A stretch of DNA of 64,000 bases, from positions 1-64,000 of the IMG/VR virus record IMGVR_UViG_3300028844_005393, one strand, 5' to 3'. Made by a program: the position numbers and the translations under genes. This DNA is from a virus. The notes below the pieces were generated by a model that was not told where the DNA came from, searched no databases, and saw nothing but the letters and a program-made list of their open reading frames with translations. Below are positions 3,712-63,556 of the stretch, one piece after another. How positions within the stretch are numbered: position 1 is the stretch's first letter; each line of letters begins with the position of its first letter.

Positions 3712-4658
3712 CCATAAACCTCTTCAAATTTTTCAATAAAGTTTTTAAGTTCAATTTTAGGAAGTTCATTTATGCCAGCTGCTTTCTCACGACCTCCTCC
3801 TGATGGAAATTGTAATGCAAGTTTACTTGCCCCTACTGGATTATCTTTTGGTGAACGAATACTTACACGATAATTGAATTGATTTATATTTGTTAAAATA
3901 GCAAATGCTTTACTTGGATTATTTGTTGTTTGTTTGTTGCTATAAATTCCTGAATATCTTATAGATGCTTTTGTGTTCGGTAGTAATATTACATCACCAA
4001 TGCTTGATGTATGTAAAACTTCCGATGAGTTTAACTCAAGTTCGTCTGATTTCATTTGTTGATTTATTTTTGCGTAAATCTTAGAATTTTTTCTGTATTG
4101 AAACGGAGAACGAAATCTTTCAAGGTCTAAATAAACATCTTTAGGGTGCACTACGAGATCAGATTCTTCGTTTCCATAACCATTGTAGTTTAAAGTTTCA
4201 CCGATTTCTCTTAAAATCAACATAGCATACTCGTTGAAACATGGATTTAATTTTTCTGCTTGTTCGTGTAAATTGTCTCCGTATGCTCCACATATTGTCC
4301 AAGGACGATGCAATCCGTCAGTTGCCTTGTCAACTATTATATTAGTACAACAATTAGGGTCGGTATCTACTTTGATTGAAAAGTTGTTACCAAATTCGGT
4401 GTCACCTGTTTCATGGTGATCAAACCATTTTATTTTATTTCCGTTTTTTAATATCGGTTCTACATATTCAGAATTTGATAATAAAGATATATCAAACACC
4501 GACAACGATGCATCGGTTATATCAACTAAGTGTCTTAGTAACTTTACATCACGCTTTACTCCTGTGATTAACTCACTTTTTCTAGGAAAGTGTAAACGAT
4601 ACTGGTGTAAACTTATTAGTCCGTCTGCGTCTCCGTTAAAGATGTCATAATTTTTCAT
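3708..4658 (-). CDS. DHH/DHHA1-family phosphoesterase
   Basis: FNGDADG (DxD), FDIS, WFDHH, C-terminal GGGREKAAG (DHHA1-like); start at 4658, two nt past the upstream stop. Confidence 0.8.
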   Translation of the reverse strand: MKNYDIFNGDADGLISLHQYRLHFPRKSELITGVKRDVKLLRHLVDITDASLSVFDISLLSNSEYVEPILKNGNKIKWFDHHETGDTEFGNNFSIKVDTDPNCCTNIIVDKATDGLHRPWTICGAYGDNLHEQAEKLNPCFNEYAMLILREIGETLNYNGYGNEESDLVVHPKDVYLDLERFRSPFQYRKNSKIYAKINQQMKSDELELNSSEVLHTSSIGDVILLPNTKASIRYSGIYSNKQTTNNPSKAFAILTNINQFNYRVSIRSPKDNPVGASKLALQFPSGGGREKAAGINELPKIELKNFIEKFEEVYG

Positions 4659-4659
4659 A

Positions 4660-5502
4660 TTATTCTTCTGCCACAGCCCGTCCTTTATCTGATTTCCAGT
4701 CTTGTTCGGGTCTGTCAATTTCTTCATTTCTTTTAATTACCGCATCAAGTATCGGTGTTTCTATATCATTGTTTTTTGCGTAACTTGCAAGTGCATTGGT
4801 GTCTTTTGGAAAACAAGTTCCTCCAAATCCTCTGCGACCATCGTGTCCTGGTACTTTGGTGTGACCAATTCCGATTCTTTTATCTTGTGTTGCAATACAA
4901 CGAACATTTTCATAATCAATGTCAAGTTCTGTACAAATGCTTTCAAGTTCATTGAAGAATCCAACTTTTACACTTAGAAATACATTCTTTAAGTACTTTA
5001 TCATTTCTGCTTCTGCTGGTTTGCATTGAATTACATTTTTATTTACAACTGATCCGTTTCCGTTGTTATATGCAAGTTCAAACATTCTTTTCATTTTTTC
5101 ATATAAAAATAAATCACCAGAACCTAGAATCCATTGGTCGCAGTTTTTAAAGTCTTCTTTCCAGTTTTTCTCTGTAAGAAACTCTGGCATAAAGTTAACA
5201 TCAAGTTCTTCACAAGTTCCAGGTGGAACAGTTGAACGAAGAACTATATACTTTGTGTCGTCTATTTCTTGAATTTCTTCGCATACTGCACGAACAATGT
5301 CAAGGTTTGCGCTTCCATCTTTGTTCATTGGTGTAGGAACTGCAACGAAAATAATTTCGGACTCTTCTACAAATGTCTCTATATCCAGTTCTTTGGGTTC
5401 TCTTTTATCTTCTAGTACATCCCACACCAATACATCTACATATGGTCTTAACAAGGTCATCGCATGACCCACAAATCCGTTTCCAACAACTCCAACTTTC
5501 AT
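4660..5502 (-). CDS. ugd: UDP-glucose/GDP-mannose 6-dehydrogenase, NAD-binding and central domains only
   Basis: GVVGNGFVG, VAVPTP, RSTVPPG, PEFL, AEMIKY..N, GFGGTCFPKD with catalytic Cys; GGAG upstream of ATG 5502. Confidence 0.88.
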   Translation of the reverse strand: MKVGVVGNGFVGHAMTLLRPYVDVLVWDVLEDKREPKELDIETFVEESEIIFVAVPTPMNKDGSANLDIVRAVCEEIQEIDDTKYIVLRSTVPPGTCEELDVNFMPEFLTEKNWKEDFKNCDQWILGSGDLFLYEKMKRMFELAYNNGNGSVVNKNVIQCKPAEAEMIKYLKNVFLSVKVGFFNELESICTELDIDYENVRCIATQDKRIGIGHTKVPGHDGRRGFGGTCFPKDTNALASYAKNNDIETPILDAVIKRNEEIDRPEQDWKSDKGRAVAEE

Positions 5503-5570
5503 ATAACGCAATCTCCAGTTTTTTTTTTTGTGCTATATAACCCTTTTTATTATAAGTATTTCCTTTTGTG

Positions 5571-6182
5571 TTATTTAACTTGAAATCTTCTTAGTTTCCA
5601 GAATAACCAAACAAATAATCTTGGAACTTTAAGAATAATACCATTTCCTCTGACAATTGGTGTTTCTGCGTATAGTCGTCTTGATATTATTTTTTTGTAC
5701 CAACTTACATTTTCAAACTTACAATCAACGATGTATATATCTTTTGTTTTAGGTAAATCATCTATATCGTAGTCCGACCAATTTCCGAGGTCTACAAATG
5801 CTCCGTCTATAATTGTGCGGAAATCATTGACGAATGTACAATTCTTGATGGTGATGTTAGATGCCTGACATTTTATTGTAAAGTGTTGCTTGGTGTTTTT
5901 TGAAATGAATCTGCAATTTTCAAACAACATAAAACCACCACGAACAATATCAACTACATCTTCAAACCCACCGATTATAGTAGTATTGGTTACTACAACA
6001 TCACTACAATAAGATAATTTTAATCCTTCTGCAACTTCTCCTGCTTCAATGTGACAATTATCAATTCTTATTTTTTTGCTTGGCATACCAGGTCTCCACA
6101 TAAAACCCAAAGCATTGCTTTGTATGCCATTTTCAATATTACCTATAAACCTTTTATTTTTTATCGTGATTACATCAATCAC
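5571..6182 (-). CDS. Right-handed parallel beta-helix (pectin lyase-like fold) protein
   Basis: Repeated I.NC.F/I rungs (IDNCHI, FENCRF, IKNCTF, VDCKF), GFEDVVDI; basic-aromatic C-terminus. Confidence 0.6.
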   Translation of the reverse strand: MIDVITIKNKRFIGNIENGIQSNALGFMWRPGMPSKKIRIDNCHIEAGEVAEGLKLSYCSDVVVTNTTIIGGFEDVVDIVRGGFMLFENCRFISKNTKQHFTIKCQASNITIKNCTFVNDFRTIIDGAFVDLGNWSDYDIDDLPKTKDIYIVDCKFENVSWYKKIISRRLYAETPIVRGNGIILKVPRLFVWLFWKLRRFQVK

Positions 6183-6988
6183 TTAAACTTTCTCTTTATG
6201 CGGTCAATTGCATTTTTGTCTGTTACGTTTGTGGAGTTTCCCAAAGACGACCCGAATATATTTAATACCTCATTCTTGCTTAATTTTTTATCGTCATCAA
6301 GAGCACGGACTTTTTCTTTTGCGTCGTGTACACCTTTTATTATGTTGCTTGTCATTTGACTACTTGTAATTCCAAACCAGGTAATAAGTCCTGGTATTCT
6401 TGCCACCAACCAACCTATTAGTTGCGTAATTATAGGAAGAAGTGCAGGTCCTGCAACTATTAAAACTGCTACTGCCCCTATTAGTCCAAATGTTCCAGTT
6501 AACCATGCCCACATAGAACTGAAAAAACCATCCTTTTGTTCTTTTGCTTTAAGTTCACCTAAACTAATAAGTTTTTCCTCTGTATCTTTAAGGTCGTGTC
6601 CTAGAATTTGTTTGCGTCTGCTAAGTTCAATTACATCTTGTTCTCTGTCTGTTAGATTTTCTATTGCAACTTCGTTTTGTGCAATAAGGTCTTCTACATG
6701 AATTTTGTCACCAGGTTGTGGAAGGCCTACTATGGTTTGTGCTTCTTTTGCTAGTTGAAGTGCCACTAAGTCTTCTGATGATTTATTCTCTGATAAAGAT
6801 AGTGCTTCAACCGTACCCGTTACATAAGAACGTGTATGTCTTTCAAGTTCACTTTCTTTTCTTGTTATTTCTCCTGCAATTTCTTGTCTGTCTTGTTTTA
6901 GTCCCCAATTTGGTATTGTTATACATCCTGTAAAAAGGAAAGATACCAATAGAACTACTGATATATTCATAATTTTTTTAACTTTCAT
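6179..6988 (-). CDS. Lipoprotein with coiled coil and C-proximal transmembrane region (candidate unimolecular spanin)
   Basis: Signal peptide ending in lipobox FLFTG-C, heptad-rich middle, long hydrophobic segment at about aa 155-208. Confidence 0.6.
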   Translation of the reverse strand: MKVKKIMNISVVLLVSFLFTGCITIPNWGLKQDRQEIAGEITRKESELERHTRSYVTGTVEALSLSENKSSEDLVALQLAKEAQTIVGLPQPGDKIHVEDLIAQNEVAIENLTDREQDVIELSRRKQILGHDLKDTEEKLISLGELKAKEQKDGFFSSMWAWLTGTFGLIGAVAVLIVAGPALLPIITQLIGWLVARIPGLITWFGITSSQMTSNIIKGVHDAKEKVRALDDDKKLSKNEVLNIFGSSLGNSTNVTDKNAIDRIKRKFK

Positions 6989-7850
6989 TGTTTTTATATA
7001 TATCCTGATTTATTCTTTTTTTAAAATTATTATATTCCGAGGTTAAAAGCATTTCTGATTTTTTTCTAAAATTATTTATCTTAAAATTCTTTTTATTGTG
7101 TTTTATTAGTGTACGATCCTCGCACACAATATTGTTTTCAAGAATATACTGTTGAACAGGTATTCCGTTTTCTTTCATGTAGTCACAACAATACATCATA
7201 AATGTGTCATCTGGTCCATATCCTACAAATGATTTTGGAATTCCTATATATTTTGCAAGTCTAGCAGAAATACAAGTAAACCACCCACCTGCCCATTTGA
7301 ATTTAGGGCATTTTGTTATCCGTGAATCTCCGTGATTTGTTTTTAGTATTTTTTGAATATCTACATTTTCACACATACCAGTTGGGTTTTTTAAATATAA
7401 TTGATTCACCAAGCAATCCCAAGTTGTGTCCCACAATCTTACAAGTTGAGGAGTAATAATGTAATTGAAGTTATCTCTTTTTATGGTTTCACTTGCACCG
7501 AGCATATTTGTGATTGTGTTGTCGTTGAAATGTAAATCCACATCCAAGAAAATCAAAGAATCATGTGGGGATGCTCTTTCTATACACTCTCTGCGGTGCT
7601 CGTTAACTCCAAAGTATTCATTTGTGATAGAAGATGTAATACCTACACTCCTATTGTTTGTTTTGTTGTATTCTTTCATTACATTGATAATATTATCATT
7701 GTTTTTTATTACACCATCGTTGATGTTTAAAATACTATCAATTTTAATATCACGGATGTTATTTAAATCGCACACATTAAGAATTTGATTTACCACTCGT
7801 CTGTAGTTATCAATTTCATGTGGGAATATGTGAATTATTATCGTATTCAT
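6978..7850 (-). CDS. GT-A fold glycosyltransferase (GT2-like)
   Basis: IFLDVD (DxD), WAGGWFTCIS, GYGPDDTF. Confidence 0.7.
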   Translation of the reverse strand: MNTIIIHIFPHEIDNYRRVVNQILNVCDLNNIRDIKIDSILNINDGVIKNNDNIINVMKEYNKTNNRSVGITSSITNEYFGVNEHRRECIERASPHDSLIFLDVDLHFNDNTITNMLGASETIKRDNFNYIITPQLVRLWDTTWDCLVNQLYLKNPTGMCENVDIQKILKTNHGDSRITKCPKFKWAGGWFTCISARLAKYIGIPKSFVGYGPDDTFMMYCCDYMKENGIPVQQYILENNIVCEDRTLIKHNKKNFKINNFRKKSEMLLTSEYNNFKKRINQDIYKNNES

Positions 7851-10096
7851 TTGAATAAATTGTAAAACGCAAGTCTTAGAAAGTGCTCTTCTTTATCTGG
7901 ATTTTTTTCATATTGCTTTAGTATTTTTGAGTAAAACATTTTAGGTTTTCGGTATACGCATTTACGTGGAACTGAAAAGCACGTTCCTGTATATTTGGTT
8001 GTATCTTCTGTATATATTTGATTTAGTGTTTGCTTATAATAGTTTCTTATTGTGTTATGATTTTTAATTTTAAGATGGGGGCTTATGTTCGTTTTTGATA
8101 AAACTCCATCGATAACACAAAAACTATTTGAATTTAAAATTGAAGACTTAGAAATCTTGCTTGCTATATTTTTTTGTTTCTCGTTGTTGGCAAATACTAA
8201 ATAATTTGGTAGGGAATTGTAGTGTGTAACAATAAATGATAAAAAAATACCAAATGAACTATATGTTGGTTTGTGTGTGAATGAGTTTAAGCAAACATCA
8301 ACACCACCGTCCACCAGTACGTTGCAAGAAATTCCAAAATTTTTGAGTGAGAACAATTCATTTTTGGTTCGTGCACCAACGAGTACAATATCACTATCTG
8401 TTATTTTGAATTTAGATAGACATTGCTTTGTTGTAAATTTTTCTAATGTTGTTATTTCTTTATTTATACTGAAGTTACAATTTACGTAGGAACTGTCTTT
8501 GTATATTTTTGTAACCTCTTCGTTATTTTTCTTTGAAAGTTTTTCGTCTTCTTTTCGGTTTATAAAATACTCTTTTAATTTTTGCTCTAGTGATTTATTT
8601 TTTATTAAATAAATTCCGTTATTAAGTTCAATATCTGTCGTTGGGGTGAACTCACATTGTTTTAATATTTTTTCTCGGTTGATGTATCTTCTGTTTACTT
8701 CGTTTCCGTGAAACATGACGTCTATGTCTAGATTTGCATAACCAACACCATTTTTAATTTTCTTGTTCCTCTTGCACCAGTTTATGAATTCTAGTTTAAA
8801 ATCATAAGTGGTATTTTTAAAAAACCTATCACGTAATATTATGTCATGGGTTTCTTTGTAATAATAAAAACCAATTAGATTTAGTAAATCACCACCACCA
8901 ACAACTGCTAAATCGAATAGCAGATTTTTTTCAAGAAAACTTCTGTGGTAACAACATCCATATCCAGGTTCTCCCTTTCTGTCTAGTAGTATTTGTGTAT
9001 CATTCTTTTTATTACAATGTGTTAGTTTATATGCAGATGAGTTTTTTTCTTTATTTTCACTTTTTACATTTTCTTTTTTTGAATTGGAAAATATTTGAGC
9101 AACCCCATAAAATTCAGTTGCAAGTATTATATCCTTCCACCAATCTATTTTGTTAAACTTAATATCAGCATCAATCCACATTATATATTTGTAATTCTTC
9201 ACCAATAATCTTTTTATTCCTACATTAAGAAGTTGCTCCTTCATCCAAAACACGGACTCGGTTTTAATTGATATGCAATTTTTTGTTAATTTGTTAACTC
9301 TGTATTTTGAGTTTTCGGTATACGACTCAACTACAAGTGGTTCTATATTTGTTGATCTTATTTCCGACAGAAATTTACTAAAATTTAAAAACTTACTTTT
9401 ATAGTCACATGGATTAAAATAGCAACAAACTACTCCTATATCAGATTGCGGTGGGTTGTAATTTGTTAATTCTTTATATAACCTATTGCTATTTGTTTGG
9501 TCGTCTATGCTTTTTATGTGTCTTAAATAATAATCATCGGTATATTTTAACTGAATCCGTGATGTTGCTCCTACTATCTGTTCGTGTAGTTTTTTGTTCC
9601 ATCTAAGTTTATTATTATTTTTATATATACGACCTTGATAATCTGGAAAGTTAATTGCATTGTTTTTATCTTTGTCAATTGACCACCCATAGTGTTTTGC
9701 CGTTTTTTCATCAATTCCGTCAAAATAGTTTAATCTAGGTATCCAAAATAAATCAGAATTATTTTTTAATATAATTGAGTGAACTTCTTTGATTAAGGTT
9801 TCTGATGGAAGTTCATCTGAATCTAAGTTGAATATATAATCTCCGTTGCATATAGAAAAGAAAATATTTTTATGAGAAGCAAAGTCATAAAGTAGTTTTC
9901 TGTAAATATATTTATCTACTTTAGTTTCAAGATACTCTTTAATTCGTTCACATTTACTGAAATCTGAAATTACTATTATTTCGTCTTTTTCTTTTTTGTG
10001 TATGTTGATGTAGTCTACTAATCCTATAAATGACTCGGTTTCCTCACTTACACATATAGCATAACTGATGCTAGGATTTGCTTGCGTCAAACTCAT
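7847..10096 (-). CDS. Multidomain glycosyltransferase: GT2 + second GT-A domain + DUF3431-like C-terminus
   Basis: FNLDSDE/PRLN/FPDYQGRIY; CCYFNP..WMKEQLLN..WIDADI..GGGD; FIVTHYNSLPNYLVF...FSVPRKCV. Confidence 0.75.
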   Translation of the reverse strand: MSLTQANPSISYAICVSEETESFIGLVDYINIHKKEKDEIIVISDFSKCERIKEYLETKVDKYIYRKLLYDFASHKNIFFSICNGDYIFNLDSDELPSETLIKEVHSIILKNNSDLFWIPRLNYFDGIDEKTAKHYGWSIDKDKNNAINFPDYQGRIYKNNNKLRWNKKLHEQIVGATSRIQLKYTDDYYLRHIKSIDDQTNSNRLYKELTNYNPPQSDIGVVCCYFNPCDYKSKFLNFSKFLSEIRSTNIEPLVVESYTENSKYRVNKLTKNCISIKTESVFWMKEQLLNVGIKRLLVKNYKYIMWIDADIKFNKIDWWKDIILATEFYGVAQIFSNSKKENVKSENKEKNSSAYKLTHCNKKNDTQILLDRKGEPGYGCCYHRSFLEKNLLFDLAVVGGGDLLNLIGFYYYKETHDIILRDRFFKNTTYDFKLEFINWCKRNKKIKNGVGYANLDIDVMFHGNEVNRRYINREKILKQCEFTPTTDIELNNGIYLIKNKSLEQKLKEYFINRKEDEKLSKKNNEEVTKIYKDSSYVNCNFSINKEITTLEKFTTKQCLSKFKITDSDIVLVGARTKNELFSLKNFGISCNVLVDGGVDVCLNSFTHKPTYSSFGIFLSFIVTHYNSLPNYLVFANNEKQKNIASKISKSSILNSNSFCVIDGVLSKTNISPHLKIKNHNTIRNYYKQTLNQIYTEDTTKYTGTCFSVPRKCVYRKPKMFYSKILKQYEKNPDKEEHFLRLAFYNLFK

Positions 10097-57329: not shown

Positions 57330-57875
57330 ATGGATATAGATCAAGCAAGAACAGCATCACAACAAACAGGAGCTCATAGATGGACTCTCACGACAAATTT
57401 AAACAAATTGTATAAAAACGGCGAAGGAAGTGTTTATACAGGTAGAAAAGCTCCAAACGTTCCCACATCATCCAAAGCACCACCTTTGAACAAGCAGATT
57501 TCTGAAGGTGTTAAGTTTTTTGGTTATGGTCGTGGTAATGTATCAAAGCGTCTTGGGGAAATGGGCAAAGATAAAGATTTAGGTACAATGGCCGTAGGAG
57601 GTGGAGCAGAAGGTGCATTCAGACAGGGTGATACATCATTCCTCGGTGGATTTAATACTTTCAGAGCACCACGTTCAGGTGAAAGTGATTTCGGTACAAA
57701 CTTAATCACGTCTCGTGACGCAAGTTGGTACACCCAAGGTCTCACGGGTATCAAGAAGTACGGAAATGAGATTGCCGGAATGGTAGGCAAGAACTTTGGA
57801 GCACGTGGTGGGGCATCTGAATCCCGTGGTGCTGATGGTTCTGGTGCAGGTGGTGTCGCTGGCAATCGCGCATAA
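57330..57875 (+). CDS. Gly-rich basic, probably disordered protein (possible internal virion protein)
   Basis: GGAG Shine-Dalgarno, upstream AATATTTAT motif, visibly higher GC than neighbours. Confidence 0.65.
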   Translation: MDIDQARTASQQTGAHRWTLTTNLNKLYKNGEGSVYTGRKAPNVPTSSKAPPLNKQISEGVKFFGYGRGNVSKRLGEMGKDKDLGTMAVGGGAEGAFRQGDTSFLGGFNTFRAPRSGESDFGTNLITSRDASWYTQGLTGIKKYGNEIAGMVGKNFGARGGASESRGADGSGAGGVAGNRA

Positions 57876-57925
57876 CTCCCATTAAATACTTGCTTTTTTT
57901 CTTTAGAACGCATAACATATAGGTT

Positions 57926-58456
57926 ATGCAAAATAAATCCTATTGTTTGGGGTTGGATATTAGTTCTACGGTGGTTGGTTATTGTGTATCTACTTCTAAA
58001 GAAAAAGTAACCAATGCCGGTTATATAGATGTTCGCAAAGAAACGAGCATCAAAGAAAAAGCACATAAAGTTGCGAACGAACTTGATAAATTAAATCTAG
58101 AACCCTCTGAGATTATCGTAGAAGATACATTAAGTGGGTTCGGTGGTGGACGAACAAGTCAACAGACCATTGTAAAGCTATCAAAGTGCAATGCGGTAAT
58201 TAGTTATGTCATCGAAGCACTGTATGAACTAGACGTGGAACACGTTAATGTGTCGTCTCTGCGTAAAGTAGTATTCGGTAAAAGTCGTGAACAAGGAGTT
58301 GATAGTAAAACTTTTGTACGTGAACAACTTGAGAAAAAGATTGATTTAAATCAATTTATTGTCTATAATAGTAGAAAAAATTATGATAAAAGGAACTATG
58401 ATATGTTAGACGCAACCGTGGCATCCTTGTATCATTGGTATACTATTGACAATTAA
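57926..58456 (+). CDS. RuvC-like Holliday junction resolvase
   Basis: LGLDISS..GY, IIVED, RK..FG, D..DA acidic set. Confidence 0.85.
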   Translation: MQNKSYCLGLDISSTVVGYCVSTSKEKVTNAGYIDVRKETSIKEKAHKVANELDKLNLEPSEIIVEDTLSGFGGGRTSQQTIVKLSKCNAVISYVIEALYELDVEHVNVSSLRKVVFGKSREQGVDSKTFVREQLEKKIDLNQFIVYNSRKNYDKRNYDMLDATVASLYHWYTIDN

Positions 58457-59382
58457 TGGGGATTTCGGAGCAAAAACTACTTGCCTTGTTGCAGAAGGTA
58501 TTAGGTGAAGGTAAAATCGTCTCTAAAGACGAAGCTATGTTTGTGTGTCCGTTTTCTCATCACAGAAAACCAAAGTTAGCAGTAAATCTATCTACACAAC
58601 GATGGCAAAGTTGGATTGACACAAATGCTAAAGGTCGTAGTATCTTTTCGTTATTCAAAAGATTACAAGTTCCAAGCAACTATTTTGATGAATTATCTCG
58701 TATTGTAAAACTTCCCAAAAGTTCACAAACACAAGAAACAAAAGAAGAATATGTTTCATTGCCTTATGAGTATAAAAAATTAACCGAAACGCATACGGAT
58801 TTTTCATATTCAAAAGCAATGAAGTATTTAAAAAATCGTGGAATTGAATCTTATGATATAGAACGATACGATATTGGATATTGTGACAAAGGAGATTATG
58901 TTGGAAGAATTATTGTTCCATCGTATGATGCAGATAATAAATTAAATTATTTTCTAGCAAGAGATTTTACAGGTAATGCTTATTTGAAATACAAAAATCC
59001 TCCTGTTAGTAAAGATGTGGTTGTATTTGAAAATCAAATTGATTTCTCTGAACCACTTATTTTATGTGAGGGTGTATTTGATGCGATTGCAATTCGTAGA
59101 AATGCTATTGCTTTACTTGGAAAGAATATTCCAAACAAATTAAAAATGCGACTTGTTCAACATGGTGTAAAAGAAGTCAGTATTGTTTTGGATAATGATG
59201 CGTTTAAAAATGCGTTGTATTTATCAGAATCACTTATGAATGATAACATCAAAGTGAGATTAGTCAGAATGGGATCAGAAGATGCCGCTGACTTGGGTTT
59301 TAAAAAGGTTATAGAAAGAATCAACTCAACCGACATTTTAGATTTTGGTCAGTTGATGCAACAGAAGTTATGCTTGAATTAA
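58456..59382 (+). CDS. DNA primase (DnaG/TOPRIM type)
   Basis: YLKNRGI, RIIVPSYD, KYKNP, CEGVFDA, LDNDA, DAAD. Confidence 0.9.
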   Translation: MGISEQKLLALLQKVLGEGKIVSKDEAMFVCPFSHHRKPKLAVNLSTQRWQSWIDTNAKGRSIFSLFKRLQVPSNYFDELSRIVKLPKSSQTQETKEEYVSLPYEYKKLTETHTDFSYSKAMKYLKNRGIESYDIERYDIGYCDKGDYVGRIIVPSYDADNKLNYFLARDFTGNAYLKYKNPPVSKDVVVFENQIDFSEPLILCEGVFDAIAIRRNAIALLGKNIPNKLKMRLVQHGVKEVSIVLDNDAFKNALYLSESLMNDNIKVRLVRMGSEDAADLGFKKVIERINSTDILDFGQLMQQKLCLN

Positions 59383-60074
59383 AAAATAAGTTAAAGAATG
59401 TAGAAAAAATATATCATCTAGCAGACATTCATATTCGCAATGTAAAACGTCACACCGAATATACAACCGTGTTTGACAATTTCTATGAACAAGTAAAATC
59501 TGACAACTACGAAAATGCTATTATTTTCATTGGTGGGGATATTGCTCATGCAAAAACAGAAATGTCTCCTGAACTTATTAAGCAAATATCAAACTTTCTA
59601 CGAAAGTGTGCCACGTTACACCCTACGGTTGTAATTGCAGGTAATCACGATTGTAATTTAAATAACCCTGACCGACTTGATGTATTATCTCCTATTATGG
59701 ATATGATGGACGATGATAATTTATATTATTTAAAAGATACAGGTGTATATAAAATCGGTGATGTTGCAATAAGTGTATTTGGTATATTTGAAGAACCAAC
59801 CGAATATATACATGGAAATAAAATTGATGATCCGTCAATTAACACAAAGATTGCAGTTTATCACGGAGCAATACGAAGAAGCACAACCGATATTGGGTAT
59901 ATTGTGGTTGGAGGTGATTTAACTCTTCCTCAGTTTGATGGATATGATATTGTTATGCTTGGTGATATTCACAAGTACCAAGTGTTACAAGAATATAAAA
60001 CTGAACATAGATTTATACCGGAAAGTAAACTTGATAAGTATAAACTTGATGGGTGGGACATTTGCAATGACTAA
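59370..60074 (+). CDS. sbcD: SbcD/Mre11 (gp47-like) nuclease, N-terminal part
   Basis: ADIH, GGD, GNHD, YHG, LGDIH; stops before the YxGS motif. Confidence 0.85.
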   Translation: MLELKNKLKNVEKIYHLADIHIRNVKRHTEYTTVFDNFYEQVKSDNYENAIIFIGGDIAHAKTEMSPELIKQISNFLRKCATLHPTVVIAGNHDCNLNNPDRLDVLSPIMDMMDDDNLYYLKDTGVYKIGDVAISVFGIFEEPTEYIHGNKIDDPSINTKIAVYHGAIRRSTTDIGYIVVGGDLTLPQFDGYDIVMLGDIHKYQVLQEYKTEHRFIPESKLDKYKLDGWDICND

Positions 60075-60966
60075 GTTTTTAATAAGATGTAGAGATATTG
60101 ACATCGGAGATGTTTTGTTTGCAAGTAGTATTGCAAAAAAACTTAAAGATGAAACTCCGTGGGAAACACCATGTCATATTGATTTTGATTCTAATTATTT
60201 ACAAACTCTTGAACTATTAGATAACAATCCTTACATTGACAATGTTTTCTACAAAGATAGTGATGATGATTATACCAAAATTTTTGATATAAATAAAAGT
60301 AGTCATGTCTTGGATGTATCTACTTCTGTTGTATCACAATATCAACAAATGTGTGGAATAAAAAGTTTCGACGATACCTTTGAAGTTTTTACAAATTCAA
60401 TAAGTGACTACTCAATTAAATCTAGTATGAAAGAATTAATTGAGATAGATTATTGGACTAATGATTTAATAAAAATTTGTTATGTAATGGATTGGGACAG
60501 AAAAGGTTATCTATTAGACGAGCACGATTCAATTGTTATTGGAAATGAAATAAACAAAAGAGATACGCATTCAATAGTTGATCCACTAAAAGAAACTAAT
60601 AATATAATGTTATTTGCCATTGGAATTGAATCCCGTGAATCAAAAAACTTTCCTAGTATAAACTCGGCAAGTAAATTTAGTTTTACTGCTAGTTTAATTA
60701 AAAACTCTGATTATGTAATAGGTCCCGAGGGGTGTCTTACTAATATATCATCTGCACTGGGAACTCCTACAATAATCACCACTGATTATATTCACCACAC
60801 TTATGGTCCAAACGGAGTTAGAACAGATAAATCTAAAAAATACACTCCTCCGTTTTTAGGTCCTTGTAAGTATTTTCCAAATGGAAATCATACACATTTA
60901 GATCCATATCTTAGTGATCGTGAAGTTGGAAACGAAATTTTAAAAATTGTGACAAATGGAAGATAA
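60067..60966 (+). CDS. GT9 (heptosyltransferase-like, GT-B) glycosyltransferase inserted in the sbcD locus
   Basis: IGDVLFASSIAKKLK, ELLDNNPYID, LIKNSDYVIGPEGCLTNISSALGTPTI; start at ATG 60067. Confidence 0.72.
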   Translation: MTKFLIRCRDIDIGDVLFASSIAKKLKDETPWETPCHIDFDSNYLQTLELLDNNPYIDNVFYKDSDDDYTKIFDINKSSHVLDVSTSVVSQYQQMCGIKSFDDTFEVFTNSISDYSIKSSMKELIEIDYWTNDLIKICYVMDWDRKGYLLDEHDSIVIGNEINKRDTHSIVDPLKETNNIMLFAIGIESRESKNFPSINSASKFSFTASLIKNSDYVIGPEGCLTNISSALGTPTIITTDYIHHTYGPNGVRTDKSKKYTPPFLGPCKYFPNGNHTHLDPYLSDREVGNEILKIVTNGR

Positions 60967-63556
60967 CGAAAAGTACATAAAAGTAAAAAGACACAATACC
61001 AATAAACCTGTCGTGGTTTATTCCGGTAGCATGATTCAACAAAACCACGGAGAAAAACCACATGGACATGGGTATGTATTATGGGATGTGGCAAATCGTA
61101 CACACGTGCACCACGAAGTTGTAAATGATTACGGATATTATACAATAGAAGTACGTGACGGAACGTGTGTTAGTGATTTAAGTAAACTTCCAAAAAAAGC
61201 AAGACTTCGTGTAAAGGTGTTTAACACAACTGCAACAGAAACAAAAGAAATTATTGCGGAAATCCGAAAACAAACAAGTATAACAGATTTAAATGTAACA
61301 CGATGTGATGCTATATCTGAAGCAAAAAAGTTTGATCGTGATAATAAATTTGATTTTGGTGATATATCTTCTATACAAATACAAAATGATTTAATAGAAG
61401 ATTATCTTCGTAGGAATTTTGTTGTTGATGATGAACAAGTAAAAACTGCTCTTGATATTAACAAAGAAACAAACGACAAACTTATTGTAAAAGAAGTTCT
61501 TCGTAATTGTATTTGGAAACCAAAGAAGTTTGAGTTTGGAAATATGTTCAGTTACGGAGATGGAAATGTAATAGACTTTTCAAATATGAAAAGTGTTATG
61601 GGATTATTTGCATCTAACGCAAGTGGTAAAAGCAGTGTTATGAGTGCATTAAGTTTTTGTTTGTTTGATAAATGTGATCGTGCGTTTAAGGCTGCTCATG
61701 TACTGAATACACAAACAGAATCTTTTTATTGTAAATTAAACTTTGAAATATCGGGAGTAAACTATTTCATAGACAGAACTGCAACTACCAAAAAGAATGG
61801 TGATGTAACTGTTGTAGTTGACTTTTGGAAGTTAGATGAAGATGGTCAACAACTATCATTAAACGGAGAACAACGAGCAGGAACTAATGCAATTATCCGT
61901 GACCATGTTGGTTCTTATGATGACTTTGTTTTAACAACATTAAGTTTACAAAACAACAATGCTATTTTTATTGATAAAAGTCAAAGTGAACGAAAAGACT
62001 TACTTGCTCAATTTATGGGCATTGATACATTTGATCAATTGCATACAACTGCATCTGAAGATGTTAAAGAAATTAATGCTTTATTAAAACGATTTAATCG
62101 TGAAGATTTTGATGAAACATTAGCAGATGTAAAAGAAAAACTTGAAAAAATAAATGAACAATATAATAAGCAAGATAGTAAAACAAATATAGCACTACTT
62201 GAGCAAAAAAGATTAAACAAAGAACTTGCTGATAAAAATTCTTTATTTAAAACTTGTTCATTTGATGAAACTGCGGTTGATATAGATAAACTTGAATTTA
62301 CAAAAAATAATTTAAAAGAACGACTGAATACCGCCGAGGAAAACAGAGAATCTGAATCTGAACGAAAAAAACAACTTGCAAACGAAAAGAAAATGTGTGT
62401 ACGCAAAATGTCTGATCTTGAGGGGGTCAGTGATAGTTATGTTTATGTTTTAAAAGTTCGTGAAGAAATAACAAAAGTAGATAAAGACCTTGCGGTTTTA
62501 CGCACTTCTGTAAATGCAAAGTTAGATAAATTAAAGCAATATGATAGTCACGAATATGATCCAAAATGTAAGTTTTGCGTAAACAATTCAAAGAACTTAA
62601 TTGAAAGTGCAGAGCAAACAAAAACTGAATTGGATAAAGACAAAGCAGCTGCAGATGATCTTGTTGATCAAAAAACTGATTTAGCAAATATACTCGATGA
62701 TAATAAAGATGTAGAAAAAAACTACGAATTATTAAATGAATTAAAAAACAAATCAAGTCAACTTGTATACGAAATAAACGAAGCAGATTCCAAAGTTTTG
62801 GCACTATCTAGCATGATTCAATCACTTGGAAAAGATATAGTAATAAATGATAAAAATATAAAAGAATTTTACGAGTGTAAAGATATAATTGAATACAATC
62901 AAAAACTTCAAATAGAAGTAGATGAATTACAAGCAAAATTATTAAAAGTAAACTCAATAGCAAATACAGAAAGTACTAAATTACAAACTTTGTTTGGTGA
63001 AGTAAAAATTATAGAAAAAGAACACGAAGATGTTCTTGTGTCAATTGAAGAAGCAAAAAATTATGAAAGAAAGAAACGAGGATACGAATTATACCTTGAT
63101 GCAGTAAAACGGGATGGTATTTCATATGAATTAATTTCCAAAACAATTCCGAGTATTGAAAGTGAAGTTAATAACATTCTTTCTCAAATTGTTGACTTTG
63201 GTATGAATCTTGAAATGGATGGAAAGCACATTTACTCAAAGATTACATACGAAGATCGTCATTGGCCACTTGAAATGTGTAGTGGTATGGAACGGTTCAT
63301 AAGTAGTATTGCTATGCGTGTAGCACTTATCAATGTAAGCAGTCTTCCTCGTTCTAATTTCCTCGTTATTGACGAGGGTTGGGGTTCACTTGACGGTGAT
63401 AATATCAGTAGTGTATTTAATCTCTTTACATACCTCAAAGGTCAGTTTGAGTTTATATTAGTTATCAGTCATTTGGATGTTATGCGTGATATGGTAGATG
63501 AAATTATAGAAATTCAAAAGGACGGATCATTTAGTAAGATAAAATACGGAGCATAA
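60956..63556 (+). CDS. sbcC: Fusion of the SbcD C-terminal part with SbcC/Rad50 (gp46-like) ATPase
   Basis: N-terminal VVYSGSMIQQNHGE..GYVLWD; NMFSY, Walker A NASGKSS, Q-loop, CKFC zinc hook, SGME signature, IDEG Walker B, ISH. Confidence 0.9.
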   Translation: MEDNEKYIKVKRHNTNKPVVVYSGSMIQQNHGEKPHGHGYVLWDVANRTHVHHEVVNDYGYYTIEVRDGTCVSDLSKLPKKARLRVKVFNTTATETKEIIAEIRKQTSITDLNVTRCDAISEAKKFDRDNKFDFGDISSIQIQNDLIEDYLRRNFVVDDEQVKTALDINKETNDKLIVKEVLRNCIWKPKKFEFGNMFSYGDGNVIDFSNMKSVMGLFASNASGKSSVMSALSFCLFDKCDRAFKAAHVLNTQTESFYCKLNFEISGVNYFIDRTATTKKNGDVTVVVDFWKLDEDGQQLSLNGEQRAGTNAIIRDHVGSYDDFVLTTLSLQNNNAIFIDKSQSERKDLLAQFMGIDTFDQLHTTASEDVKEINALLKRFNREDFDETLADVKEKLEKINEQYNKQDSKTNIALLEQKRLNKELADKNSLFKTCSFDETAVDIDKLEFTKNNLKERLNTAEENRESESERKKQLANEKKMCVRKMSDLEGVSDSYVYVLKVREEITKVDKDLAVLRTSVNAKLDKLKQYDSHEYDPKCKFCVNNSKNLIESAEQTKTELDKDKAAADDLVDQKTDLANILDDNKDVEKNYELLNELKNKSSQLVYEINEADSKVLALSSMIQSLGKDIVINDKNIKEFYECKDIIEYNQKLQIEVDELQAKLLKVNSIANTESTKLQTLFGEVKIIEKEHEDVLVSIEEAKNYERKKRGYELYLDAVKRDGISYELISKTIPSIESEVNNILSQIVDFGMNLEMDGKHIYSKITYEDRHWPLEMCSGMERFISSIAMRVALINVSSLPRSNFLVIDEGWGSLDGDNISSVFNLFTYLKGQFEFILVISHLDVMRDMVDEIIEIQKDGSFSKIKYGA

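Follow-up and report, generated by a model that had tools for sequence, protein, structure and literature searches.

A marine phage Mre11-Rad50 fusion gene broken inside the nuclease fold, with a glycosyltransferase-like gene in the gap

The window analysed here (64,000 nucleotides, positions 1 to 64,000 of the virus record IMGVR_UViG_3300028844_005393, an 80-kb IMG/VR contig judged ~41% complete) carries the nuclease Mre11/SbcD as two gene pieces, the second of which runs on into Rad50/SbcC, with a glycosyltransferase-like gene lying between them. Both a split of this kind and the fusion of Mre11 to Rad50 were known before. Dassa et al. 2009 (Nucleic Acids Res 37:2560; PMC2677866) described an SbcD-like gene from Lake Gatun in the Global Ocean Sampling (GOS) data that is fractured by a Vsr-like endonuclease and contains no intein; its first piece has 25 extra C-terminal residues, its second piece 9 extra N-terminal residues, and the endonuclease open reading frame (ORF) overlaps the downstream ORF. 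Yoshida et al. 2011 (Virol J 8:427; PMC3175470) reported Mre11/Rad50 fusions in Mimivirus (R555) and among aquatic metagenome homologues, where they are abundant in viral fractions and occur on scaffolds with phage primase genes. In other genes, pieces separated by free-standing homing endonucleases are known from Aeh1 nrdA with mobE, T4 gene 39/60 with mobA, and gene 43 of phage 25 (Edgell, Gibb and Belfort 2010, Virol J 7:290; PMC2988022), in each of which an essential DNA-metabolism gene is split at a critical region, start and stop codons overlap, and the separately translated pieces must reassemble.

The window resembles the Lake Gatun locus in that an SbcD-like gene is cut between consecutive conserved motifs, the pieces bear extra terminal residues, and the inserted ORF overlaps the downstream piece, but the gap holds a GT9-like gene in place of an endonuclease, the downstream piece continues to a full Rad50/SbcC, and the arrangement is fixed in a clade, whereas Lake Gatun is a single locus. 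Its unsplit relatives are like the fusions of Yoshida et al., with an N-terminal nuclease and a C-terminal ATPase in one chain and the same primase neighbour (R555 is likened by architecture), while in the window the gene is broken again, inside the Mre11 part, and nuclease and ATPase are encoded as two chains. T4 gp47/gp46 and bacterial SbcD/SbcC possess the same parts (calcineurin-like nuclease, capping domain, ABC ATPase, coiled coil, and zinc hook) but are divided after the whole of SbcD, whereas in the window the cut comes within the nuclease fold, after motif V and before the following beta-strand. With the genes-in-pieces of Edgell et al. the window shares a DNA-metabolism gene split at a critical region and overlapping start and stop codons; it differs in the host gene, in a cassette with conserved complementary end peptides, and in the replacement of the endonuclease by a non-nuclease gene. 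In the literature searched, four aspects appear to be undescribed: cargo other than a nuclease in a re-used endonuclease slot, fixed in a marine clade; re-fused scars; evidence that the end peptides (here termed clasp peptides) travel with the cassette; and a methyltransferase variant. The original prediction for this stretch, a nuclease split in two around an inserted glycosyltransferase with its second half fused to Rad50, was right on the anatomy and wrong on the cause and the novelty, as an SbcD-like gene split at this point had already been reported (PMC2677866).

The locus consists of three co-oriented ORFs, 59370-60074 (234 amino acids, aa; the N-part), 60067-60966 (299 aa), and 60956-63556 (866 aa; the C-part), with the following features.

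59370-60074, + strand: N-part, SbcD/Mre11 catalytic core with motifs I-V (PF00149, PHROG 100)
59997-60071, + strand: C-terminal tail of the N-part, residues 210-234, KTEHRFIPESKLDKYKLDGWDICND, from alignment with the tails of other split forms
60067-60966, + strand: cargo gene, GT9-like with a GT-B fold, 299 aa (AlphaFold2 model, Foldseek)
60956-61006, + strand: N-terminal basic head of the C-part, residues 1-17, MEDNEKYIKVKRHNTNK, from alignment with the heads of other split forms
61007-61540, + strand: remaining SbcD in the C-part, comprising the last nuclease-fold strand and loop (PVVVYSGSMIQQNHGE), the capping domain and a helical linker, from alignment to fused relatives
61541-63556, + strand: Rad50/SbcC ABC ATPase (PHROG 77 and motifs in the translation)
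Rad50 motifs within it: Walker A 61610-61636; CKFC zinc hook 62567-62578; signature 63278-63298; Walker B 63359-63385; H-loop 63461-63475

As predicted, the N-part carries the phosphoesterase motifs up to LGDIH and then stops. It matches the Pfam Metallophos profile over its full length (PF00149, positions 2-191 of 191, E 2e-8) and PHROG 100 SbcD (E 2e-12), and all five calcineurin-like motifs possess their metal ligands: LADIH (residues 17-21; D19/H21), GGDIAH (55-60; D57), GNHD (91-94; N92/H93), VYHG (163-166; H165), and GDIH (198-201; D199/H201). The C-part starts with VVVYSGS..QQNHGE, and its first 33 residues end in PVVVYSGSMIQQNHGE; this is the next SbcD strand, because fused relatives run from GDIHKYQVLQEY straight into KPVVVY.GS..QQNHGE within 5-12 residues, an alignment that confirms the junction as homologous. 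The same chain continues into a complete Rad50/SbcC (PHROG 77, E 2e-43) with Walker A (residues 219-227), CKFC hook (538-541) within a coiled coil, signature CSGMERF (775-781), Walker B (802-810), and H-loop (836-840). The middle gene is intact and overlaps both halves, by 8 nucleotides (nt) upstream (its ATG at 60067 against the N-part stop at 60072-60074) and by 11 nt downstream (its stop at 60964-60966 against the C-part ATG at 60956). Motif V (window 59961-59972) reads GDIH in the window and in all relatives compared to the usual G-H-x-H, with the first His ligand changed to Asp nearly invariantly across the SbcD family of the window.

The state of the gene in relatives was classified for 345 IMG/VR loci and a further 80 metagenome loci; the conserved stretches are common to both states, and a profile search with split N-parts gave only fused forms. 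Single ORFs of ~1,050-1,100 aa predominate (271 of the 345 IMG/VR loci, with 70 split; 74 of the 80 further loci fused). Among phage records searched with tblastn, the N-part and C-part matches abut in one frame in Microcystis phage Mel-JY01 (1,066 aa, annotated as 'AAA domain containing protein') and in the 735-kb phage LR756501, and are ~970 nt apart in the 484-kb phage LR756508. Judged from these sequences, Mre11 and Rad50 in one polypeptide is the ancestral state of the phage lineage; the predicted fusion of the second half to Rad50 is therefore present but represents the old state and no new fusion. The gene is thus contiguous in close relatives and cut in the window between conserved motifs, as in a fractured gene, and the ~230-aa 'SbcD' and ~860-aa 'SbcC' of annotations in these marine phages would be two pieces of one fused Mre11-Rad50.

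The break falls within the nuclease fold. In fused forms the loop from GDIH to Y.GS..QQNHGE is 17-24 residues long (for example, GDIHKHQVLQEYDHQNDKPIIAFCGS), and a family profile aligned to Thermotoga maritima Mre11 (..GHIHSFREIQKQP-LTIYPGSLIRIDFGEE..) places the break in the turn of a hairpin whose two strands are the one following motif V and the Y-P-G-S strand. For a fused relative that retains an insert at this point (locus L243), an AlphaFold2 model of the SbcD portion (424 aa, predicted local distance difference test [pLDDT] 88) has its best structural matches to 3tho, 3qg5, 7dog, and 1ii7 (E 1e-12 to 1e-10), and the region equivalent to C-part residues 18-195 is among that matching Mre11/SbcD structures. 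In the window the capping domain and Rad50-binding helices are encoded by the second gene (C-part residues 18-195) and not, as in Mre11/SbcD, in the same chain as the nuclease. By alignment and model, all metal ligands are placed in chain 1, and the last core beta-strand, capping domain, linker helices, and Rad50 in chain 2, a division of the fold unlike that of SbcD and SbcC, which falls after the capping domain.

Outside the clade of the window, gap contents were read at L001, L076, L323, L392, L395, and L396. They comprise Vsr-like or TnsA-like endonucleases, a DNA methyltransferase, or nothing, and in a further set of relatives the pieces are joined again.

L001 (LR756508): 305-aa ORF with Zn-ribbons and a TnsA-like PD-(D/E)xK domain (PF08722, E 6e-6); also matches the DNA-binding part of a PHROG 'HNH endonuclease' (E 4e-15)
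L396 and L323: Vsr/DUF559-like ORF with a NUMOD3 motif, ending ..LRFWEHEI.., with a 16-nt overlap with the C-part; the Lake Gatun type by its published description
L392, 5693-6484: DNA methyltransferase (N6/N4; PF01555, E 2e-31)
L076: empty, with stop and start overlapping as ATGA
L243/L321, L246, and L451: re-fused single ORFs, with tail and head retained in frame (..GDWELYKSKGWKQVNEYLDTLNMIVYKKQPAVAY..)

A homing-endonuclease gene between the pieces is thus present in L001, L323, and L396, and lacking in the window and in all 26 distinct loci of its clade. The same break with homologous tail and head occurs with an endonuclease, a methyltransferase, or an empty gap; therefore the glycosyltransferase (GT) is secondary cargo and not the splitter, and the original attribution of the split to its insertion does not hold. 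From this comparison of sequences the split appears older than the GT, and the slot would have been made by a mobile endonuclease cassette. The tail of one further split form (P0177, residues 228-242) ends in EIHQNEFEEILLNNI, 11/15 identical to the C-terminus of the L396 Vsr-like endonuclease, as if left by an internal deletion of the endonuclease gene. L076 is the only split locus with an empty gap, and the re-fused forms look like a junction of its type healed by an indel.

Several observations accompany these loci. The ATGA overlap of L076 lies inside an A4 run (L076:255-275), where a 1-nt indel would yield the fused-with-insert state of L243, L246, and L451; ribosomal frameshifting or bypass at this junction was considered and rejected, as there is no slippery heptamer, and has no bearing on the window, where the pieces are separated by a 0.9-kb gene. 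Immediately upstream of its N-part, L392 has a 119-aa TnsA-like endonuclease ORF (L392:4645-5004; PF08722, E 7e-11). In L395, a 6.2-kb European Nucleotide Archive (ENA) contig, the first 60 residues of a Vsr-like ORF run on into an unrelated 592-aa frame (L395:4195-5973) and no C-part follows; this may have arisen by chimeric assembly or by rearrangement of the locus.

Split forms possess an acidic tail on the first piece and a basic head on the second, both of which are lacking from short-loop fused forms. The usual tail elsewhere follows ..SEE.hEIDE.EL..YL..GWEI.., and heads elsewhere include MFMSDDKYRVKR, MKNYIIRKKNP, MINKIKIKRLKP, and MGKTIKIKKILPR (patterns ..KY.VKR.. and ..IKIKK..). Net charges range from -2 to -13 for tails and from +1 to +5 for heads, the homology of the peptides spans lineages with N-domains only ~50% identical, and in the protein database the tail occurs on dozens of N-parts that stand alone at ~220-250 aa. 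In the AlphaFold2 model of L243 the insert consists of a strand (208-215), a helix (216-224), a loop (230-237), and a second strand (238-245) that leads directly into the conserved core strand 247-250; the loop is the least confident part and lies at the break position of the split forms. The tail of the window corresponds to the first strand and helix and its head to the second strand.

In the marine clade of the window the three-gene layout, frames, and overlaps are identical in all 34-plus close relatives, and the same layout with its overlaps occurs in 26 distinct sequences from independent metagenomes, a recurrence attributable therefore neither to chance nor to misassembly; contiguity at both junctions, which the prediction had left to be confirmed, is borne out by these independent and diverged copies. 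On the N-domain tree the clade holds together as a single group with good support (12 rows; Shimodaira-Hasegawa-like approximate likelihood ratio test [SH-aLRT] 98), and by its sequences the GT version is fixed in it (26 distinct loci), so far bearing out the predicted stable retention of an accessory gene in the locus. Identity among the close relatives is 79-95% for the C-part, 71-95% for the N-part, and 50-96% for the GT. Across the 26 distinct sequences, the approximate ratios of nonsynonymous to synonymous differences (pN/pS) were 0.18 for the N core, 0.29 for the tail, 0.30 for the head, 0.13 for the SbcD part of the C-piece, 0.20 for SbcC, and 0.35 for the GT, with pS ~0.6 in every piece (0.59-0.64; tail, 0.64). 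With pN/pS of 0.13-0.35, every piece, tail and head included, is therefore constrained as protein, and purifying selection on all pieces indicates at the sequence level that function is kept. Synonymous sites in the 26 clade sequences had no extra constraint of the kind that RNA structure would impose.

In a phylogeny of 107 N-domains, at least 14 changes are required to explain the split/insert state, at least 7 of which are forced by well-supported branches, and constraining the insert-bearing rows to a single clade was rejected (difference in log-likelihood, 552; approximately unbiased test, p-AU 1e-57). Split and fused forms may have near-identical N-domains (split P0219 and fused L212, 95.9%; split P0180 and fused L249, 96.9%), and in both pairs complete divergence starts right after GDIHKRQ. 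With near-identical N-domains in both states and a single origin rejected, the cassette is therefore mobile; such a pattern is expected from homing with co-conversion, or where recombination with an intact allele often leads to precise loss.

The reading favoured here, at a probability of roughly 0.8, is that of a gene fractured by a homing-endonuclease cassette, in which a GT later replaced the endonuclease and the two chains associate non-covalently. From the gene anatomy, the homology and distribution of states among relatives, the selection on every piece, and the folds, we infer the order of events, the co-translation, and the physical reassembly as follows. A free-standing homing-endonuclease cassette aimed at the conserved GDIH...Y.GS..QQNHGE coding stretch would have entered the beta-hairpin turn after phosphoesterase motif V, bringing a stop codon and a new start codon along with the endonuclease gene, and adding ~25 acidic codons as the tail of the upstream piece and ~10-17 basic codons as the head of the downstream one. 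Later, in the marine clade's ancestor, a GT9-like gene from a phage glycan-synthesis cluster would have taken the place of the endonuclease gene, and this version would have become fixed. The three genes probably lie on one transcript: no promoter or terminator signal above shuffled expectation was found between them, which led separate transcription units to be rejected, and with the overlapping stop and start codons this therefore suggests a single transcript with coupled translation. The N-part would give all of the metal ligands and the C-part the last core strand, the capping domain, and Rad50, and the two chains would associate non-covalently into a working Mre11-Rad50 end-processing enzyme, with tail and head pairing as a short ribbon and the helix packed on top (a small beta-alpha-beta clasp) to extend the core hairpin without splicing. 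Reassembly of two chains is the most likely outcome, indirectly supported by the purifying selection and by the predicted single fold of tail and head in the re-fused relatives.

Several points weigh against this reading. The association of the chains is inferential, and the pairing of the tail strand with the head strand derives from secondary structure in a relative with one chain rather than from coordinates. Former presence of an endonuclease in the GT clade is deduced from the homologous tail and head only, no endonuclease gene or recognisable remnant being present in the window or in any locus of that clade. The tree is blind to gain versus loss, and repeated precise loss instead of homing could explain part of the scatter. 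The insert-free L076 is a single contig with its junction in an A4 run, where a sequencing indel is possible, and the selection ratios are approximate because pS is near saturation.

The cargo itself is a GT9-like (heptosyltransferase-like) protein according to a confident model, from which sugar transfer, and with it any substrate, is predicted. The AlphaFold2 model of the middle ORF has a two-domain GT-B fold (pLDDT 90.7), and its best Foldseek matches are the GT9 enzymes 3tov, 1psw (WaaF), and WaaC (E 1e-8 to 1e-6), with 3tov, 1psw, 2gt1, and 2h1f at probability 1.0 and TibC weaker. It shares the two-domain GT-B fold with GT9 heptosyltransferases (WaaC, WaaF, 3tov, and the TibC-type protein heptosyltransferases) and has no significant sequence match to them, so that it resembles GT9 by fold and not by sequence: the Pfam GT9 profile does not match the middle ORF (only a weak DUF354 match, E 0.002), the best of the GT9 chains in the Protein Data Bank (PDB) by profile is 3tov at a non-significant E of 0.16, and PHROGs hold no family for it. 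Its 115 homologues have an invariant N-terminal G-D and a C-terminal G.EG..N motif, and the N-terminal h-G-D-h-h motif aligns with that of 3tov. Homologues 29-39% identical are found in ~45 further viral contigs, where no SbcD/SbcC lies within 5 kb of them and their neighbours are GT7-like transferases, a methyltransferase, an NAD-dependent epimerase/dehydratase, and DUF6165; the GT therefore counts as a regular phage glycan-cluster gene that moved into the slot. Compact phage glycan clusters with GT9-like homologues were seen in L115, L120, and L146 (~4200-8200 in each). A transposon-like insertion was rejected, there being no flanking direct or inverted repeats of note.

It could be argued that the GT is instead a functional partner of the nuclease, modifying DNA or the enzyme, for example, and that its position was selected accordingly. 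T4 alpha- and beta-glucosyltransferases are phage GT-B enzymes that glucosylate DNA, which counts in favour of such a partnership, as does the strict conservation of the position and the stop/start overlaps within the clade. This is nevertheless improbable, as homologues in other phages sit in glycan-synthesis clusters away from recombination genes, other lineages fill the slot with endonucleases, a methyltransferase, or nothing, and the GT evolves faster than its neighbours (50-96% compared to 71-95% identity; pN/pS 0.35).

Equally improbable is a split gene in decay, with halves that no longer cooperate or an N-part that acts alone as a generic phosphoesterase. Though all of the metal ligands do sit in the N-part, both halves along with tail and head are under purifying selection in 26 diverged sequences with no disrupted copy among them, the arrangement is fixed throughout a clade, and no second SbcD or SbcC turned up in the 80-kb record (the N-part and the GT, the two genes searched for, each occur once in this ~41% complete record). 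Split NrdA and split gp43 of other phages are, moreover, functional (Edgell et al. 2010, PMC2988022).

Joining of the halves by splicing has a smaller chance still. Were tail and head a split intein, degenerate or miniature, that unites the halves through protein trans-splicing, the layout of N-piece, free-standing endonuclease, and C-piece and the charge polarity would mirror those of split-intein fractured genes, and in the relative L392 a putative atypical split intein interrupts Rad50 at Walker A; this is very hard to reconcile with a combined length of ~40 residues compared to ~130 for the HINT fold, with the lack of HINT blocks, of a Cys/Ser nucleophile at the tail start, and of a conserved HN followed by Cys/Ser/Thr at the head end (RHN-T occurs only in the window clade and not in L001, L076, L392, or L396), with the retention of the segment as a folded insert in the protein of re-fused relatives, and with the classification of the SbcD-like locus of Dassa et al. 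2009 (PMC2677866) as intein-less. That the middle ORF lies inside a self-splicing group I or II intron, with a mature mRNA for a continuous SbcD-SbcC, is just as remote: Vsr-like endonucleases are known also in group I introns of recA (Dassa 2009, PMC2677866) and a highly conserved coding stretch is a typical intron homing site, but no catalytic RNA core was detected (with Rfam, no family matched window 59300-61400 at any E up to 10, and at gathering scores none matched L396, L001, L392, or L076), the overlapping ORFs leave no room for one, tail and head are conserved as peptides (pN/pS ~0.3) with synonymous divergence as elsewhere (pS 0.59-0.64), and L076 is without any intervening sequence.

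Within the fractured-gene reading, the idea that the cassette carries its own two-piece non-covalent clasp and that the clasp-flanked gap serves as a reusable landing slot in an essential gene is, taken jointly, tentative and somewhat short of even odds. If true, the clasp (acidic strand-helix tail and basic strand head forming one mini-domain) would be a functional alternative to a split intein, making a selfish insertion into an active-site region harmless without intron or intein, and its halves would constitute a natural heterodimerising module of ~40 residues. Cargo in the slot, the GT here and the DNA methyltransferase in L392, would be protected from loss and expressed with the replication genes, placing a glycan-pathway gene under expression from inside a replication/recombination module. 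The stages of a homing-endonuclease cycle in one essential gene would be intact, invaded and fractured, with a decaying endonuclease, split but empty, re-fused with a scar, and with the slot re-used by cargo, and the locus with its relatives would cover most of them.

The Rad50 part of L392 (Ga0306898_1000021, L392:6491-10672) is cut again directly after Walker A (..NASGK|CVDPNTEIEIEY..stop); next come a 392-aa ORF and a further ORF in which the initial ~125 residues end ..GIVSHN|SSLFDTLSF.. and Rad50 then resumes. Though it has no Pfam Hint match, this second cut looks, from its sequence, like an atypically split intein with a short N-piece and a free-standing ORF between the halves.

Upstream of the locus in the window lie a RuvC-like resolvase gene and a DnaG-type primase gene (Pfam, PHROG), the latter directly adjacent, with a 13-nt overlap with the N-part start, and found as a neighbour likewise in L001, L002, L323, and L396.

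58456-59382, + strand: DnaG/Toprim-type primase gene (PHROG 47 DNA primase, E 1e-43; Pfam Toprim_3 and DNAG_N)

Further upstream, a patch at window 57330-58066 holds a Gly-rich 181-aa ORF on the + strand, which had no Pfam match, and a 180-aa ORF on the - strand, and is GC-rich at 0.43-0.45 compared to ~0.30 around it.

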